From a virus (Duplodnaviria; Caudoviricetes): 64,000 nt of DNA. The stretch covers positions 37,214 through 101,213 of the IMG/VR virus record IMGVR_UViG_3300047545_000339; one strand, given 5' to 3'. Below the pieces are notes generated by a model that was given only the letters and a program-made list of their open reading frames with translations, was not told the DNA's origin and ran no database searches. The translations under genes and the position numbers were made by a program. The first letter of the stretch is position 1. The number at the start of each line of letters is the position of its first letter. Shown here piece by piece: positions 25,675 through 55,783 of this stretch.

Positions 25675-25974
25675 ATGAGCGAGCGTAGTGAATCAAAAAG
25701 AATAGGTGCCCAACAACATAAGAACAGCGGTCGTGGGAATAAAAAAGGAGATGCAACATGGAAAAATTATGTTGTAGATTTTAAAGAATATGGCAAGAGT
25801 TTTAGTTTAAGTCAAGATGTTTGGGCTAAGGCTGTAACAGATTGTATGAAGGTAGATAGAACAAAGTCTCCAGCAATTATCGTAGTTCTTGGCGAGGGAA
25901 GTCGCAAAATTAGGCTAGCCGTGATAGAATTAGACGAATTAGAAAGGCTAACAGAAAATGATAACAACGATTGA
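25675..25974 (+). CDS. Holliday junction resolvase-like PD-(D/E)XK nuclease
   Basis: 'NSGRG..KGDA....VVDFKE'; GGAGG RBS supports start 25675. Confidence 0.7.
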   Translation: MSERSESKRIGAQQHKNSGRGNKKGDATWKNYVVDFKEYGKSFSLSQDVWAKAVTDCMKVDRTKSPAIIVVLGEGSRKIRLAVIELDELERLTENDNND

Positions 25975-26281
25975 GTTAGTAAACGAAGTTGCTGAGTTCT
26001 CTGATATATCGGAGATTATGAATGATGAACAACTTACAGATGCACTTGGAATTATTGTTAAGCTAATGATGACTCCAGATGTACCACCACAGAAAGCGGT
26101 AGGTCTTATAGTTCAATTAGAAGCATATGCGGCAAAGTTTAAGATGCTTGCTTCGTACTATACAAATGTAAAGAAAGATGATCGTGCAAAGAAAAATCTA
26201 TACTATTCCGCTAACGAGGCGGTACAAAGACTGGTAGATAGTCTAAAGTATAGTGCTAAACTAGGGAGTTATTATGGCTAA
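25958..26281 (+). CDS. Hypothetical helical protein
   Basis: 107 aa coupled ORF. Confidence 0.55.
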   Translation: MITTIELVNEVAEFSDISEIMNDEQLTDALGIIVKLMMTPDVPPQKAVGLIVQLEAYAAKFKMLASYYTNVKKDDRAKKNLYYSANEAVQRLVDSLKYSAKLGSYYG

Positions 26282-27044
26282 AAATTTTTTAAAGCAAGTA
26301 ATGGATAAACAACCAGAAGGTCCAATTGATACTAAAGAACTTATTGCAAAAATTGAGTCTGGGTATTTAGTTGGAAGAGATCCAAAGTTCGTACAGAAGA
26401 AAACCTTTAGTCCATCGACTCTAGTTTATGGCAACGGAGCATGTCCAAGATACTGGTACATGGCTTGGACTGGTGCTGAATTTGAGGATGATGCTGATGC
26501 ATATGCTGTAGCAAATATGGGCAGCGGAACAGATGCTCATGAAAGAATCCAGACAGCAATTGAAAATGCTGGAATTATGGTAGAGAAAGAAAAAAGAATT
26601 ATTGCATCAGATCCACCAATCTTCGGCTTTGCTGATGCCATTATTCAGTGGAAAGAAGAACAGCCCGTAGTTGAAATTAAGACCATGAGGGAGGAGTCTT
26701 TTGCGTATCGAAAGCACGCAAAGCCACCAAACTATCACTTAATGCAACTTATTATTTATATGAAGGTTCTGGGTAAAAAACTTGGAGTTCTTCTTTATGA
26801 GAATAAGAATAGTCATGAACTACATGCTATTACTGTTGAGCCTACAGAGGAATACAAAGTATGGGGAGATTATGCATTTAGTTGGATGAAGAGGGTAAGA
26901 AAGTCTTGGGAAGATGGAATACTTCCACAAAAGCCATATAGGTCTAATTCCAAAGTATGTAAGACATGTCCAATCCAAAAGGCTTGTGCAGCAGCAGATA
27001 AGGGTAAGGTAAAAGTAGAACCTTTGGAGTATCTTGGATCATGA
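26274..27044 (+). CDS. Cas4-like exonuclease (phage, non-CRISPR)
   Basis: 'CPRY', 'GTDAH', 'GFAD', 'VEIKT', 'QLIIY', C-terminal CKTCP...C cluster. Confidence 0.88.
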   Translation: MAKNFLKQVMDKQPEGPIDTKELIAKIESGYLVGRDPKFVQKKTFSPSTLVYGNGACPRYWYMAWTGAEFEDDADAYAVANMGSGTDAHERIQTAIENAGIMVEKEKRIIASDPPIFGFADAIIQWKEEQPVVEIKTMREESFAYRKHAKPPNYHLMQLIIYMKVLGKKLGVLLYENKNSHELHAITVEPTEEYKVWGDYAFSWMKRVRKSWEDGILPQKPYRSNSKVCKTCPIQKACAAADKGKVKVEPLEYLGS

Positions 27045-27331
27045 AGTCTTGCGCTTGGTGTACAAATGAATTTGATCCTTCTGTAAGTTATCAAATTTAT
27101 TGTTGTTCAAATTGTCGAGAGCAAGCAACAAAAGAAAAAATTTCTGAGCGATATCAAATAAATAGAAGAAAGAATAGAGCAAAAAAGGATCGTCGCTGTA
27201 GCGGAGGTTGCGGAACACTAATTAGCATCTATAATGAAAATGGATATTGTAACATATGCATGGTAAATAGACGCAAAGTAGATAAAACATTAAAAGAATT
27301 AAAGGATTTTTTTGATTATGAGCAAAAGTAG
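27041..27331 (+). CDS. Zn-finger protein
   Basis: CAWC...CSNC, CSGGC...CNIC. Confidence 0.6.
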   Translation: MKSCAWCTNEFDPSVSYQIYCCSNCREQATKEKISERYQINRRKNRAKKDRRCSGGCGTLISIYNENGYCNICMVNRRKVDKTLKELKDFFDYEQK

Positions 27332-27914
27332 ATTAACAGATATAGCAAAGATAAATGCCCCAGATAGCTTTTGCTGTATTGATGCGAGCACAAATAGTAT
27401 GGCCTTTGCCATGTTTGTTGATCAAAAATTAGAAAGTTATGGCAAGATAACCTTTTCTGGAGATACTATTTACGATAAGATAGGTGACACTGCACAAAAA
27501 GTAAAAGGATTCTTCTTGGCTTATCCAGTAAAAACTATACTGATTGAAAAAACTATTTTTGCCAACAGTCCACTTGTTGCAGCAAACCTTGCACTAAGTC
27601 AGGGGGCACTTATAGGTGCATCAAAACTTGGTGGAGTAGAAAAAATTTATGGAGTAACTCCAATAGCGTGGCAATCATTTATTGGAACAAGACTTCTTAC
27701 TCAAGATGAAAAATCTGCTATAAGAAAGAAAACCCCAGGAAGATCAAACTCTTGGTATAAAAATCAAGAAAGAGAAAAAAGAAAGAATAAAACAATCTTT
27801 ACAGTCAACAATGAGTTTGACATTAATATTTCAGACAACGATGTGGCTGATGCCTGCGGCATTGGGATGTATGCCCTTAAAAATTGGATAAAGGTAATAA
27901 AAGATGAGAAGTAA
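27318..27914 (+). CDS. RuvC-like resolvase
   Basis: 'CIDAST', 'ILIEK', 'DVADACGIG'. Confidence 0.82.
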   Translation: MSKSRLTDIAKINAPDSFCCIDASTNSMAFAMFVDQKLESYGKITFSGDTIYDKIGDTAQKVKGFFLAYPVKTILIEKTIFANSPLVAANLALSQGALIGASKLGGVEKIYGVTPIAWQSFIGTRLLTQDEKSAIRKKTPGRSNSWYKNQEREKRKNKTIFTVNNEFDINISDNDVADACGIGMYALKNWIKVIKDEK

Positions 27915-40354: not shown

Positions 40355-40428
40355 GCGGCTGTGGTGTAGAGGTAACACGAAATCCTTCCAAGTTTTAGTC
40401 GCCAGTTCGATTCTGGTCAGCCGCTCCA
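40355..40428 (+). tRNA. tRNA-Gly(TCC)
   Basis: GCGGCTG/CAGCCGC acceptor, CT-TCC-AA loop, GTTCGATT T-loop, encoded CCA. Confidence 0.9.
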
Positions 40429-40429
40429 A

Positions 40430-40502
40430 GCCCCTGTAGCTCAGAGGATAGAGCAGAGAACTTCTAATTCTAAGGCCGCACGTTCAAATCGTGCCAGGGG
40501 CA
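40430..40502 (+). tRNA. tRNA-Arg(TCT)
   Basis: GCCCCTG/CAGGGGC acceptor, CT-TCT-AA loop, GTTCAAAT T-loop. Confidence 0.9.
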
Positions 40503-40506
40503 CTTA

Positions 40507-40587
40507 GCTGGATATGCCCCAAGGTGGGGCAGCAGACTGTAAATCTGTCGCGGTAACGCATGGTTGGTTCGATTCCAACATCCAGCA
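40507..40587 (+). tRNA. tRNA-Tyr(GTA)
   Basis: GCTGGAT/ATCCAGC acceptor, GCAGA-CT-GTA-AA-TCTGT, long variable arm. Confidence 0.88.
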
Positions 40588-40652
40588 CTTGACAATAATA
40601 TAATCTACGATATACTATACATATAGTGAAGCCTACAACTGGAGATGATAAT

Positions 40653-40889
40653 ATGGAAAACGTTCTTGTTGAAGAAATAGCAGAAGAAACTGATACACTT
40701 AATGCTCATGATCGTTGCGATAGTTGCAATTCTCAGGCATATGTTTGGGTAAATGGGGTAAGCGGAGACCTTCTTTTCTGTGGACACCATTTTGCAAAGT
40801 ATGAAGAAAAGTTACGGGCTTATGCATTTGAAATTATTGATGAACGCCACAAGCTAGAAGTAAAAAGAGAGTCTAGCGCAAACTCATAA
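40653..40889 (+). CDS. Small Cys/His protein of a common actinobacterial type
   Basis: 'L.A.DRCDSC..QAYV...LLFCGHH'. Confidence 0.65.
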   Translation: MENVLVEEIAEETDTLNAHDRCDSCNSQAYVWVNGVSGDLLFCGHHFAKYEEKLRAYAFEIIDERHKLEVKRESSANS

Positions 40890-40897
40890 AAATCTAT

Positions 40898-40971
40898 GCC
40901 TCAGTAACTCAGTTGGTCAGAGTGCGATACTTGTAATATCGAAGTCGGGGATTCGAATTCCTCCTGGGGCT
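40898..40971 (+). tRNA. tRNA-Thr(TGT)
   Basis: GCCTCAG/CTGGGGC acceptor, CGATA-CT-TGT-AA-TATCG, ATTCGAAT T-loop. Confidence 0.88.
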
Positions 40972-41000
40972 CGTTCGCAAGAGCATAAAGAAAGGTAGTT

Positions 41001-51204: not shown

Positions 51205-51224
51205 TTCATTGCTGTGTTGTCAAG

Positions 51225-51298
51225 TGGGGCATGTAGGACTCGAACCTACGACTACCGAATTATGAGTTCGGGGCTCTAACCTGCTGAGCTAATGCCCC
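51225..51298 (-). tRNA. tRNA with CAT anticodon (Ile2 or elongator Met)
   Basis: GGGGCAT/ATGCCCC acceptor, CCGAA-CT-CAT-AA-TTCGG, GTTCGAGT T-loop. Confidence 0.88.
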
Positions 51299-53894: not shown

Positions 53895-54890
53895 TTACGC
53901 GAACGCGACTGTGTTTACAGTTTCCAACATTTTATTCTTTGTTGAGTTAGTCACTGCATCGAAACCACTAGCAGCAGCAAGGACAGACTCTGCATTACCA
54001 CCGCGAGGATTGCGATACCAGTCTAGTCGTTCTGTCATTGCGTTGTAAGCACCCCACGCAGTGCCCTTGATGTTTACGCATGTCTCACCAAAGTAGATAC
54101 TGTTTAGCGTATCAATTTTGTTTTCCCACTTTGTGAGAGCACCCTTGACATCTTCCTCAGGCTTTGGATAAACAGCAGTGATGATCTCGAAGAATTGCTT
54201 GTCGCTGATTTCTTTTTCGATCATTTCGTTTGCAATCTTATCGAATTCATCAAGATACTTGTTCGCCATGCCAAGTGCCTCGCGTGCAGCCTGCACCTTG
54301 CCATTGAGCGTCTGAGTGTGACGAATGCGGAACGATTGCTTAGCACCACGACCCTTATGACCAACAGCCATGTTAAGTGTGTTCTGGCAAACAACACGAA
54401 CGGGAGTGATGCTAGCCTGAATTGCAAGTGAGCCATCGTGTGAAGTGTGGACAAGAAGATAGTTGTTCACCTTGTCACCACGACCCTTAGGATCTAGGTT
54501 GGTCTCACGATCAAGAGCGAGGGAACCAAAGACAACGGTTCCATTCTTGATTGAGCCTGCGGTTTCCCATTGTCCACCGTCAAGAAGGTTATCACCAAAC
54601 TGAAAAAGTTCTTCATTCTGGAGAACCTTGTAACGCTCGCCAACTACACCTAGAACGTCAGTCTCACCATCGAAAGGATTAGTGCGAACGGTCGCAAAGT
54701 AATCACGGTGTGATCTGCCTGGAAGTGCTAATTCCTCCACACGCACATTCCAACCTGAGAGGTGTGCTAGACTGAGCATCTCAGAAGTGGTGACAGGTTC
54801 GTCAATGACAGTGCCCAAGCCATGCCAAGCGGGTTCGCGGAGGGAAGCAAAGGAAGCCATCTCGCCGTATTGTTCTAACATGTGAGCCAT
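53895..54890 (-). CDS. DUF932-family protein
   Basis: 'MAH.LE...PAWHGLG', 'Y..LQN', 'ETAGS..G', 'SHDGS', 'TPVRVVC.NTL', 'RHT'. Confidence 0.88.
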   Translation of the reverse strand: MAHMLEQYGEMASFASLREPAWHGLGTVIDEPVTTSEMLSLAHLSGWNVRVEELALPGRSHRDYFATVRTNPFDGETDVLGVVGERYKVLQNEELFQFGDNLLDGGQWETAGSIKNGTVVFGSLALDRETNLDPKGRGDKVNNYLLVHTSHDGSLAIQASITPVRVVCQNTLNMAVGHKGRGAKQSFRIRHTQTLNGKVQAAREALGMANKYLDEFDKIANEMIEKEISDKQFFEIITAVYPKPEEDVKGALTKWENKIDTLNSIYFGETCVNIKGTAWGAYNAMTERLDWYRNPRGGNAESVLAAASGFDAVTNSTKNKMLETVNTVAFA

Positions 54891-55060
54891 ATTTTCTCCT
54901 TATTAGTAATTTATTTGATGTGATAACTATATATCCTGAGACTGACATTTGTCAATAGTTATTTAAAAAATCTACCAGTTTTTTGGTGTGGTCTTAATCA
55001 CATCGTAAAAGCTTGACAAATCTAAGATTCGGGGGCCGGGATTTTTCTGCATAAAATAAG

Positions 55061-55511
55061 AAGCCCCCCTAGCAAGGAGCAACGGTGGGTGGGGATGCTC
55101 AACTCACTAGGGGGACGTTTGTGTAGTGTTTATGTATCACAGATTCTCATGAGATCTCTCCTTCCACTACTCGCGATCCTGATGGGATTTGAACCCACGA
55201 CCTTCACCGTGACAGGGTGACGAGCACTCCGCTGCTCTACAGGACCTAGAGTGAAAGGGTATCTAGGCTTTATCCCTTTCAGTTTTACATGCAGTGAGAC
55301 AAAACATTTTTTGTCATATCTCTATTATGTTAGTACACTAGACTGCAAGTGGGGAAGCGAGTCGAACGCATGAATCCCTGATTCACACTTGCCGCAGCCC
55401 AATGGCTTTGTCTAGGTCGCATATCCCCAAGTTAGAAAATGTGGGTATAGTTTAAGATACCTGAACATCATGATTAGCATTATAACGCCGTTCGTGTATC
55501 CCCACATTTCC
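55061..55511 (-). ncRNA. Cluster of six stem-closed candidate small RNAs around tRNA-Asp
   Basis: Closing stems 55065/55114, 55123/55170, 55252/55281, 55290/55347, 55351/55428, 55435/55511; no credible ORF. Confidence 0.5.
55174..55246 (-). tRNA. tRNA-Asp(GTC)
   Basis: GGTCCTG/CAGGATC acceptor, TCACC-CT-GTC-AC-GGTGA, GTTCAAAT T-loop. Confidence 0.9.
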
Positions 55512-55546
55512 AAGCCACTATTTATTTATTTTGACATTGTATCAAA

Positions 55547-55693
55547 TTACTTGACAGTTGTCCAGCGTTCTCCGTTTACCGTCATAAGACGAACGCGAAC
55601 AGATCCTGAAGGATTCTGGACAATTTCCTGTACCGTTCCTTCGACTCCGCTCTTGAGAGTTGTGAACTGTGAGCCAACAGTGAGTGTAGACAT
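55547..55693 (-). CDS. Small beta-rich protein (not in ORF track)
   Basis: MSTLTVGSQFTTLKSGVEGTVQEIVQNPSGSVRVRL...WTTVK; GAAAGG RBS; TTGACA-N18-TAAGGT promoter. Confidence 0.65.
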   Translation of the reverse strand: MSTLTVGSQFTTLKSGVEGTVQEIVQNPSGSVRVRLMTVNGERWTTVK

Positions 55694-55783
55694 TTTGCTT
55701 CCTTTCGATTGTTTGTTTGTAGTAGAACCTTATCAGATAGGTGGGGTACTTGTCAAGGACTTTCCCCCACCGTTATCAAATTG

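Follow-up and report, generated by a model that had tools for sequence, protein, structure and literature searches.

Does a piece of phage DNA that is packed with hairpins around a single transfer RNA (tRNA) gene encode a set of independent small RNAs, or one transcript whose folded parts serve the tRNA? This question is raised by positions 55,061 to 55,511 of a 64,000-nucleotide stretch of viral DNA (hereafter the window), which forms the last 64 kb of the 101,213-base-pair (bp) IMG/VR virus record IMGVR_UViG_3300047545_000339 (94% complete, 37.6% GC, six tRNAs). Because tRNA-Asp is located on the minus strand, the whole stretch was read in the minus sense, and the units around the tRNA were numbered U1 to U6 in the direction of transcription. 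Comparison with related uncultured phages shows that five of the six non-tRNA units (U1, U2, U3, U4 and U6) are conserved, with compensatory changes. The best explanation, which we hold to be probable though well short of certain, is a minus-strand non-coding unit in which tRNA-Asp is embedded among conserved folded modules, these modules forming a protein-binding leader and trailer for the tRNA transcript.

The gene-free stretch measures about 480 bases, and the longest open reading frame (ORF) that an ORF scan finds inside it has at most 43 codons. The preliminary description of this locus, which had reported some 450 nucleotides (nt) without a credible ORF, is therefore borne out, as are all the stems it listed and its spacing of 2-8 nt between adjacent units. 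As a whole, the 491-nt minus-strand RNA reaches -158.5 kcal/mol with a fold z of -4.0, and for every unit the minus strand gives the better fold (per-unit z-scores against shuffled sequences). Compensatory changes among related phages, the check that had been proposed, were found in U1, U2, U3, U4 and U6. Together with the fold of the whole RNA they place the structured array beyond chance. Across the covariation-tested units, sliding the partner columns lowers pairing to 30-50%. The units are unrelated to one another in sequence, and no direct repeats were found in 54900-55700.

Both ends of the unit are marked. A promoter scan gives the sigma-70-type promoter of Table 1 a score of 10/12 with an extended -10, its -35 element being situated inside the final codons (W-T) of an upstream ORF of 48 amino acids (aa). 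Transcription would then start near 55529. The pattern TGGACW-17-TAYAAT/TAAAAT is present at the equivalent place in L002, L003, L006, L007, L008, L009, L013, L053, L124-L130, L144 and L150 (L numbers denote loci of relatives). At the other end U6 is a terminator with a conserved top: a terminator scan calls it intrinsic, with a GC-rich hairpin followed by a U-rich run, and its energy amounts to -25.8 kcal/mol for the 50-nt hairpin and -31.2 kcal/mol with flanks. The layout recurs in 13 relatives as an outer stem of 11-14 bp, a 2-nt bulge, an inner GAGC(N)/(N)GCUC stem and a loop of 12-16 nt. In all of them the loop sequence CACCCAC is invariant, the last inner pair covaries (A-U, G-C, C-G), and the U-rich tail follows in the window and most of the 13. 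The C-rich loop pointed out earlier thus holds up, whereas the accompanying CUCCUU, taken as resembling an anti-Shine-Dalgarno sequence, is specific to the window's clade and reads CUCCCU in relatives.

Table 1. Features of the array in the window, listed in the direction of transcription
Feature	Positions	Strand	Folded stretch	Fold z	Description
Sigma-70-type promoter	55536..55564	minus			TGGACA, 17-nt spacer, TACAAT; TG ahead of -10 element
Leader	55511..55523	minus			AAAUAGUGGCUUG, ahead of first folded module; AAUAG(U/A)G(G/A)CUUG kept in most relatives
U1	55435..55511	minus	55511-55435	-3.95	Core 55441-55505; stem GAAAATGTGGG/CCCACATTTCC; three stacked helices GUGGG/CCCAC, GAUAC/GUAUC, GAAC/GUUC
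U2 hairpin motif	55344..55432	minus	55428-55350	-1.63	AUGCGACC...AUCGACUCGCU; covariance model R1, 38.1 bits, E about 1e-6
U3 (hairpin A)	55290..55347	minus	55347-55290	-2.71	Closing stem UGCAGU/ACUGCA, single-stranded AGUCUAGUGU, inner hairpin GACAAAA/UUUUGUC
Proposed loop-loop contact	55262..55342	minus			UCUAG (55342-55338, right after 5' strand of U3 stem) with CUAGA (55266-55262, U4 loop)
U4 (hairpin B)	55252..55281	minus	55281-55252	-3.35	8-bp stem TGAAAGGG/CCCTTTCA; 14-nt loop holding AAGCCUAGAUA
tRNA-Asp (anticodon GTC)	55173..55246	minus	not folded		ARAGORN; Rfam tRNA 60.3 bits
U5	55123..55170	minus	55170-55123	-0.12	Purine-rich GGAAGGAGAG; small hairpin around CUCAUGAG; window-specific closing stem GTAGTG/CACTAC
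U6	55050..55116	minus	55114-55065	-5.10	12-bp outer stem CCCCCTAG/CTAGGGGG, UU bulge, inner stem GAGCA/UGCUC, C-rich loop UCCCCACCCACCGU, U-rich tail

Relatives of the array were gathered through the DUF932 protein encoded next to it (43 viral contigs), through the 48-aa ORF and through pattern scans. Throughout the phage family the array comes after the 48-aa ORF, in the order small ORF (...RWTTV), promoter, leader, RNA modules, tRNA-Asp or tRNA-Trp-like element, U6 terminator, promoters and DUF932. The set of modules varies among the phages, the breakpoints of gains and losses coinciding with the unit borders. U1, from end to end, is missing from L002, the closest relative (91% protein identity), which carries a tRNA-Trp-like element in the tRNA-Asp slot and has its tRNA-Asp placed after U5. 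Comparing L002 with the window, U2 is 100% identical and U3 shows two substitutions, against flanks that are about 77% identical. In another relative (L122:3035-3370) an HNH-type endonuclease-like ORF is found inside the RNA array, between tRNA-Trp and tRNA-Asp.

Modules that are inserted, lost and nested at exact boundaries, with an HNH gene inside one array, might also suggest that the structures act as DNA, for instance as an origin, a packaging site, a recombination site or the end of a mobile element, the more so as covariation alone cannot separate RNA hairpins from DNA hairpins. Nonetheless, we regard this as highly improbable. All units, in the relatives too, are oriented in the same way as the adjacent tRNA, promoter and terminator, and G-U pairs in the helices outnumber A-C pairs (17 against 9), a modest bias toward minus-sense RNA. 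An RNA-based actinophage origin of the Alma/RedRock type, a non-coding RNA adjoining a parABS cassette, was also considered and rejected: with filters off, the U2 model scores at most 7 bits in positions 25800-27600 of mycobacteriophage Alma, and no par genes are seen by the array.

The most widespread module is U2, of which a covariance model search finds exactly one copy in the 101-kb phage genome. Read from 5' to 3', it is made up of one strand of a 5-15-bp closing stem, AU, GCGA, CC(C), an apical insert, (C)AUCGAC, UCGC, U and the other strand of the closing stem. The apical hairpin is optional and very variable, from 0 to about 60 nt, and measures 48 nt in the window copy. In an alignment of 10 sequences 91% of the cells pair and 12 of the 17 pairs change on both sides; none of 500 shuffles reaches the observed score, and slid controls give 39-48%. 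Results are similar for 17 model-aligned sequences (89% of cells pairing, double changes in 12 of 16 pairs, again 0/500 shuffles matching). About 20 nucleotides of the internal loops are invariant in genomes ranging from 37% to 78% GC, while the stems vary freely.

U2 had been described earlier as a tRNA-like unit. This does not agree with the outcome: the unit fails all tRNA tests, its conserved fold is a hairpin rather than a cloverleaf, and its T-arm look is peculiar to this copy. Only the window/L002 copy has the GCG/CGC T-stem; in 15 further homologues the partner of the 3' CGC is the 5' GCG of AUGCGACC, in a helix that covaries as GCAA/UUGC (L005), GUGA/UCAC (L014) and GCCA/UGGC (L013). 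It might still be argued that the units are decayed tRNA genes in a tRNA island, given that U2 in the window contains GCG-UUCGACU-CGC and ends in GGGG...CCCCA-CUUG like the phage's own tRNA-Met, and that relatives have a tRNA-Trp-like element in the tRNA-Asp slot. We nonetheless find an origin as pseudogenes very unlikely. ARAGORN, run with introns allowed at thresholds of 60%, 70% and 80% as well as the default, returned tRNA-Asp plus implausible calls and no transfer-messenger RNA, with nothing sensible at 60-70%, and the Rfam tRNA model (RF00005) found no match besides tRNA-Asp in 54850-55750 at E up to 10. Moreover, the folds that covary are not cloverleaves, the T-arm pairing of U2 is absent from the relatives, and a perfectly conserved U2 between diverged flanks is the opposite of decay.

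The tRNA-like appearance of the window copy leads to a further candidate, the YrlA-type Y RNAs. These have tRNA-like ends, occur in actinobacteria and in some phages including mycobacteriophages, and are RNase P substrates; close to the 5' end they carry the motif GNCGAA(N)G, and their T and D stem-loops hardly vary (PMC4201824). U2 could then be a tRNA mimic bound by Ro60 (Rsr), and the acceptor-like closing stem, the T-loop-like UUCGACU of the window copy and the known occurrence of Y RNAs in actinobacteria and mycobacteriophages would agree with it. The likeness does not extend beyond a short structured RNA with tRNA-like ends. Where Y RNAs have their motif, U2 reads AUAUGCGACC (UGCGACC), no T or D stem-loops are conserved across the family (alignments A2 and A4), and U2 has no Rfam match. 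A Y RNA would also be expected beside a Ro60/TROVE gene (PF05731) of the same strand, but no such gene was found in the whole 101-kb genome (94% complete), although control genomes matched. We therefore hold a Y RNA to be extremely improbable here.

Outside the phage family, the U2 model matches viral contigs with a GC content of 65-78%, U2 being the one sequence they have in common with this phage. In two unrelated high-GC contigs (L058/L068) the motif is located 18 nt before tRNA-Leu, and in L085 it immediately follows a TATAAT element and comes after an ORF homologous to the 161-aa ORF of the window. Further high-GC copies were found in L064, L080 and L086. The U2-bearing element of L063 is the same as in two Spongiactinospora genomes. 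A metagenome scan produced 38 pattern hits, five of which were confirmed by the U2 model. Four of these five have same-strand tRNAs 70-100 nt downstream and the contig of the fifth ends 61 nt past the motif, against one of the 33 chance hits with any tRNA in the locus. All five, however, belong to the same phage family as the window, so that beyond this family L058 and L068 are the sole carriers of the link between U2 and a tRNA. A pattern scan of bacterial genomes gave 29 hits, 27 being chance occurrences in GC-rich coding sequence (ATCGACTCGCT read as I-D-S-L) and two the Spongiactinospora prophage copies. The high-GC U2 loci have no annotated relatives.

The two hairpins next in line, U3 and U4, appear to belong together. 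Both the closing and the inner stem of U3 show compensatory changes (alignment A3), and five of the eight pairs of the U4 stem changed on both sides (5 sequences). Taken jointly over 5 homologues, 95% of the cells pair compared to 30-50% in slid controls, with 10 double changes in 19 pairs, and both AGUCUAGUGU of U3 and AAGCCUAGAUA of U4 are invariant. The architecture of two hairpins at the equivalent place is also seen in the distant L006, L008 and L013. In addition, a segment of 4-5 nt immediately after the 5' strand of the first stem is complementary to a segment in the loop of the second hairpin, the latter segment being followed by UA(A). This complementarity takes four forms: UCUAG:CUAGA in the window clade, UUCG:CGAA in L006, UUCCC:GGGAA in L008 and L013, and UUCCU:AGGAA in L007, L144 and L150, the last two differing by a clean C-to-U matched by G-to-A. 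The observations are suggestive of one domain, in which U3 and U4 would be joined by a loop-loop contact, rather than of two separate RNAs.

U1 is found in two settings. Its core exists in six distinct forms, 91% of the cells pair in the alignment of these 6 sequences, and double changes concern three pairs (two in the middle helix, one in the upper helix). The 3' side holds a conserved 10-nt bulge, UUAAACUAUA, which reads UUAAA(A/C)UA(U/G)A across the forms. Whereas U1 stands free ahead of U2 in the window and in L126-L130, in L004, L124 and L125 it sits inside U2 and forms its apical hairpin. Given its occurrence in both settings, U1 is an independent folding unit, and the apex of U2 tolerates insertions.

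For U5 the outcome is different. It is present only in the window clade (L128-L130) and in L002, and its fold is no better than that of shuffled sequence. In L002 the small hairpin stays paired (GAU/AUC becoming GGA/UCC) and the closing stem is lost. The earlier claim that each unit is closed by a stem of its own therefore stands as far as the presence of the stems is concerned, but not for U5, whose stem is neither better than shuffled nor kept. Within U5 (55130-55165) we also observed AAGGAG, a strong ribosome-binding site, followed after 7 nt by AUG, five more codons and a stop. The AUG is located inside the small hairpin, and the product would read MRICDT in the window and MRSCAT in L002. 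On these two variants only, U5 may be a tiny ORF or a decoy for ribosome binding.

In view of U5, which is not significant, and of U6, which is a terminator, all units might be considered ordinary cis-acting hairpins without specific partners, that is 5' stabilisers, RNase processing sites and terminators. The high-GC U2 copies, capping GC-rich stems of 10-15 bp right after stop codons in the manner of tail-less terminators, fit such a description as well. It does not account for the sequence conservation, which plain stabilisers would not need: the U2 internal-loop nucleotides stay the same from 37% to 78% GC while their stems are free to change, and the U1 bulge and the loops of U3, U4 and U6 are likewise invariant. 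We consider this explanation quite unlikely.

What, then, would a leader and trailer around tRNA-Asp do? As to transcription, cutting, binding partners and function, we infer the following scheme. From the promoter at 55564-55536, transcription would run for about 470 nt and stop at U6. Maturation of the embedded tRNA necessarily implies that such a transcript is cut, and one transcript processed in this way is plausible: RNase P would cut at the 5' end of the tRNA, and 3' trimming would be followed by addition of CCA, which tRNA-Asp does not encode. Three products would result: the tRNA itself, about 280 nt of RNA from its 5' side (leader and U1-U4) and about 120 nt from its 3' side (U5-U6). 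Since the invariant loops sit on freely varying stems, we read them as sites that would bind proteins or each other rather than act as antisense regulators. Leader and trailer would in this manner govern the making, processing or stability of an untranslated tRNA transcript, and the excised pieces may persist as stable phage RNAs comparable to RNAC and RNAD of phage T4.

The preliminary description had instead proposed a polycistronic transcript cut into several unrelated small RNAs that serve as decoys, sponges or antitoxin mimics. Much of its first part is retained, as the stretch is non-coding, its folded units have the sense of the tRNA, and promoter and terminator keep their positions in relatives. 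Not all units are separate, however: direct repeats are lacking, as unrelated RNAs would have it, yet U3 and U4 form one putative domain, U6 is a terminator and U5 is weak. The proposed roles fare less well. Independent trans-acting RNAs, excised from the transcript and directed against host factors or defences, would explain why invariant loops on covarying stems look made for specific partners, and why modules come and go among close relatives like accessory genes. C-rich regulatory RNAs with seed loops are known, such as 6C and RsaE-type RNAs, and the C-rich loop of U6 resembles them. Against this, a search of the phage genome for complements of the conserved loops yielded one exact 11-mer, antisense inside a 1762-aa gene, which we judge to be chance; U3 and U4 appear to pair mutually and would thus not be free seeds; and no Ro60 partner was found. 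A ToxI-like type III antitoxin, or a phage mimic of one, was rejected for want of tandem direct repeats in 54900-55700. It is our judgement that, with no credible antisense targets in the phage and two loops pairing together, a leader and trailer is to be favoured over decoys and sponges, and we rate trans-acting RNAs as unlikely.

Several observations weigh against a leader and trailer for the tRNA transcript. Some high-GC U2 copies are located between protein genes, atop long terminator-like stems and without a tRNA in the fetched locus, so a tRNA-specific role of U2 is not general. In L005 and L010 no -10 element intervenes between the 48-aa ORF and U2, and in relatives of this type the RNAs may also serve as 3' untranslated region of the 48-aa gene. 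The loop-loop contact consists of four sequence forms with modest shuffle statistics (loop-shuffle p = 0.02, 0.11 and 0.15-0.21 for three forms). Finally, U5 lacks statistical support and the excess of G-U pairs is small.

None of the folded units could be assigned to a known family. When the window and 12 relatives were compared with Rfam 15 (cmscan, gathering scores), tRNAs alone were returned, and in 54850-55750 nothing credible besides tRNA-Asp was obtained at E up to 10. The Infernal/Rfam scan that had been suggested as a check thus recovers tRNA-Asp, but no other unit. Likewise, in a blastn search against 50,697 phage records the tRNA alone matched.

The closest parallels are found among RNAs associated with phage tRNA genes. 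GOLLD and ROOL, whose function is unknown, are elaborately folded non-coding RNAs that phages encode next to tRNA islands; the variable region of GOLLD sometimes holds tRNAs, and loop-loop contacts in both are backed by covariation (PMC12286853). Our array is similarly phage-encoded, structured and located beside and around a tRNA gene. It differs in its make-up: it matches neither covariance model and is built from swappable modules of 30-90 nt instead of one conserved core of 400-800 nt, and its sequence gives no indication of oligomer formation. Membership of GOLLD or ROOL is ruled out by the absence of an Rfam match in the window, the 12 relatives and 54850-55750.

In phage T4, RNAC and RNAD are encoded within the tRNA gene cluster and cut from tRNA precursors. 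Both (species 1 and 2) are small stable phage RNAs whose function is unknown (PMC9697503). The array resembles them in its placement and character beside a phage tRNA, but there is no sequence or Rfam relationship, the host group is another one, and expression and processing have been shown for T4 whereas the array is known from sequence. Structured conserved elements right behind a promoter and ahead of untranslated RNA genes are also represented by the boxA/boxB leaders of rrn operons and the put RNA of HK022. The array shares this placement with them. It has no sequence similarity to them and ends in a strong terminator of its own, which antitermination would be expected to override. Overall, the array is akin to GOLLD/ROOL and T4 RNAC/RNAD in placement and character and a member of none of these, having no Rfam match and being far smaller and modular.

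A bolder version of the leader and trailer is possible, though we put it forward with doubt. Leader, U2 and U3/U4 might constitute a new class of phage 'tRNA-operon head' RNA, with optional modules such as U1 docked next to U2 or within its apical stem. This would be a GOLLD/ROOL in small, modular form, and through its invariant loops a conserved factor of actinobacteria would be recruited that licenses or protects tRNA production. Candidate factors would be RNA polymerase, Rho or Nus factors, RNase P or J, or a tRNA-directed defence nuclease, and the U6 loop would provide a second binding site beyond the stop signal.

Independent of the mechanism, the locus adds at least three compact, covariation-supported motifs that are absent from Rfam (the U2 hairpin, the U3/U4 domain and the U1 module), all of a size suited to direct biochemistry. 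A growing view of phage tRNA islands is that they are devices for counter-defence and for tuning translation, and the function of tRNA-linked structured RNAs such as T4 RNAC/RNAD, GOLLD and ROOL has gone unexplained for decades. If a partner protein of U2 were found, this would offer a handle on the role of the whole class of tRNA-linked phage RNAs. The swapping, loss and nesting of modules at exact boundaries, in turn, provides an example of phages building non-coding RNA operons from parts.

Other observations concern the surroundings of the array. The DUF932 protein has its best similarity to proteins of Streptomyces, Mycobacterium, Arthrobacter and Gordonia phages, which would place the phage in the wider actinophage world. 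The U2 model, which worked on our own genome as positive control, was absent from five cultured DUF932 phages (Streptomyces phages Elmer and Patelgo, Arthrobacter phage Sonali, Gordonia phage Jace and Mycobacterium phage OrangeOswald). In L063, a prophage-like Spongiactinospora element of 78% GC, DUF932 and U2 are neighbours as in the window: the DUF932 gene (L063:76-1065) is located 700 nt upstream of the U2 copy (L063:1769-1826), an arrangement also seen in L098 and L121. Searches of Pfam and PHROGs gave no functional clue for the flanking genes (DUF932, DUF7178 and the 48-aa ORF). Shortly after U6 comes a stretch of some 40 nt, TTTGTCAAGCTTTTACGATGTGATTAAGACCACACC (54981-55019, minus strand), which is identical in L002 and near-identical in L003, L006, L008, L009 and L128-L130. 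It is better conserved than the adjoining genes and is probably a promoter or operator of the DUF932 gene.

The 48-aa ORF (MSTLTVGSQF...RWTTVK; 55547-55693, minus strand) always precedes the RNA array and has 109 metagenomic homologues, with no Pfam or PHROG family match. In L005 and L010 the U2 motif begins no more than about 10 nt past its stop codon, and in L009 and L010 a second small ORF, apparently a paralogue, is found just upstream of it. The 48-aa protein and the RNAs may be functionally linked. Upstream of this ORF, the promoter region (55740-55780, minus strand) is flanked by an inverted repeat, GGTGGGGG...CCCCACC, and contains ACGGTGGG, a complement, perhaps by coincidence, of the conserved loop of U6 (CCCACCGU).

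Modules of the kind described here were not found at the other tRNA regions of the window (40355-40972 and 51224-51298). The tRNA-Trp(CCA)-like element that takes the tRNA-Asp slot in relatives is located at L002:3585-3668, L003:1758-1828, L006:2383-2455 and L125:1912-1982, and also occurs in L005 (about 1930-1860, minus strand), L126 and L127; the window has no counterpart. Its D loop measures 3 nt, its anticodon stem closes with a C-A mismatch and G1 is paired with U72, and it is called a tRNA by neither ARAGORN nor Rfam. Its acceptor stem covaries between L002 and L006, and the element could be an odd functional tRNA or a mimic.

One more hairpin is seen in relatives only and is absent from the window. 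It consists of CCU, a 5-bp stem and (U/C)GAUG(N)(N)AAAC as loop, and was found in L004 (about 1205-1170, minus strand), L005 (about 1990-1950 and 1845-1810, minus strand), L006 (2560-2600) and L010 (3608-3640), as well as in L053, L122, L129 and L130. Its stem covaries (GAGCA/UGCUC or AGACA/UGUCU), the first of these forms being common to this hairpin and the top of U6. In some cases the hairpin immediately precedes tRNA-Asp; in others it has a U tail and stands as a terminator.

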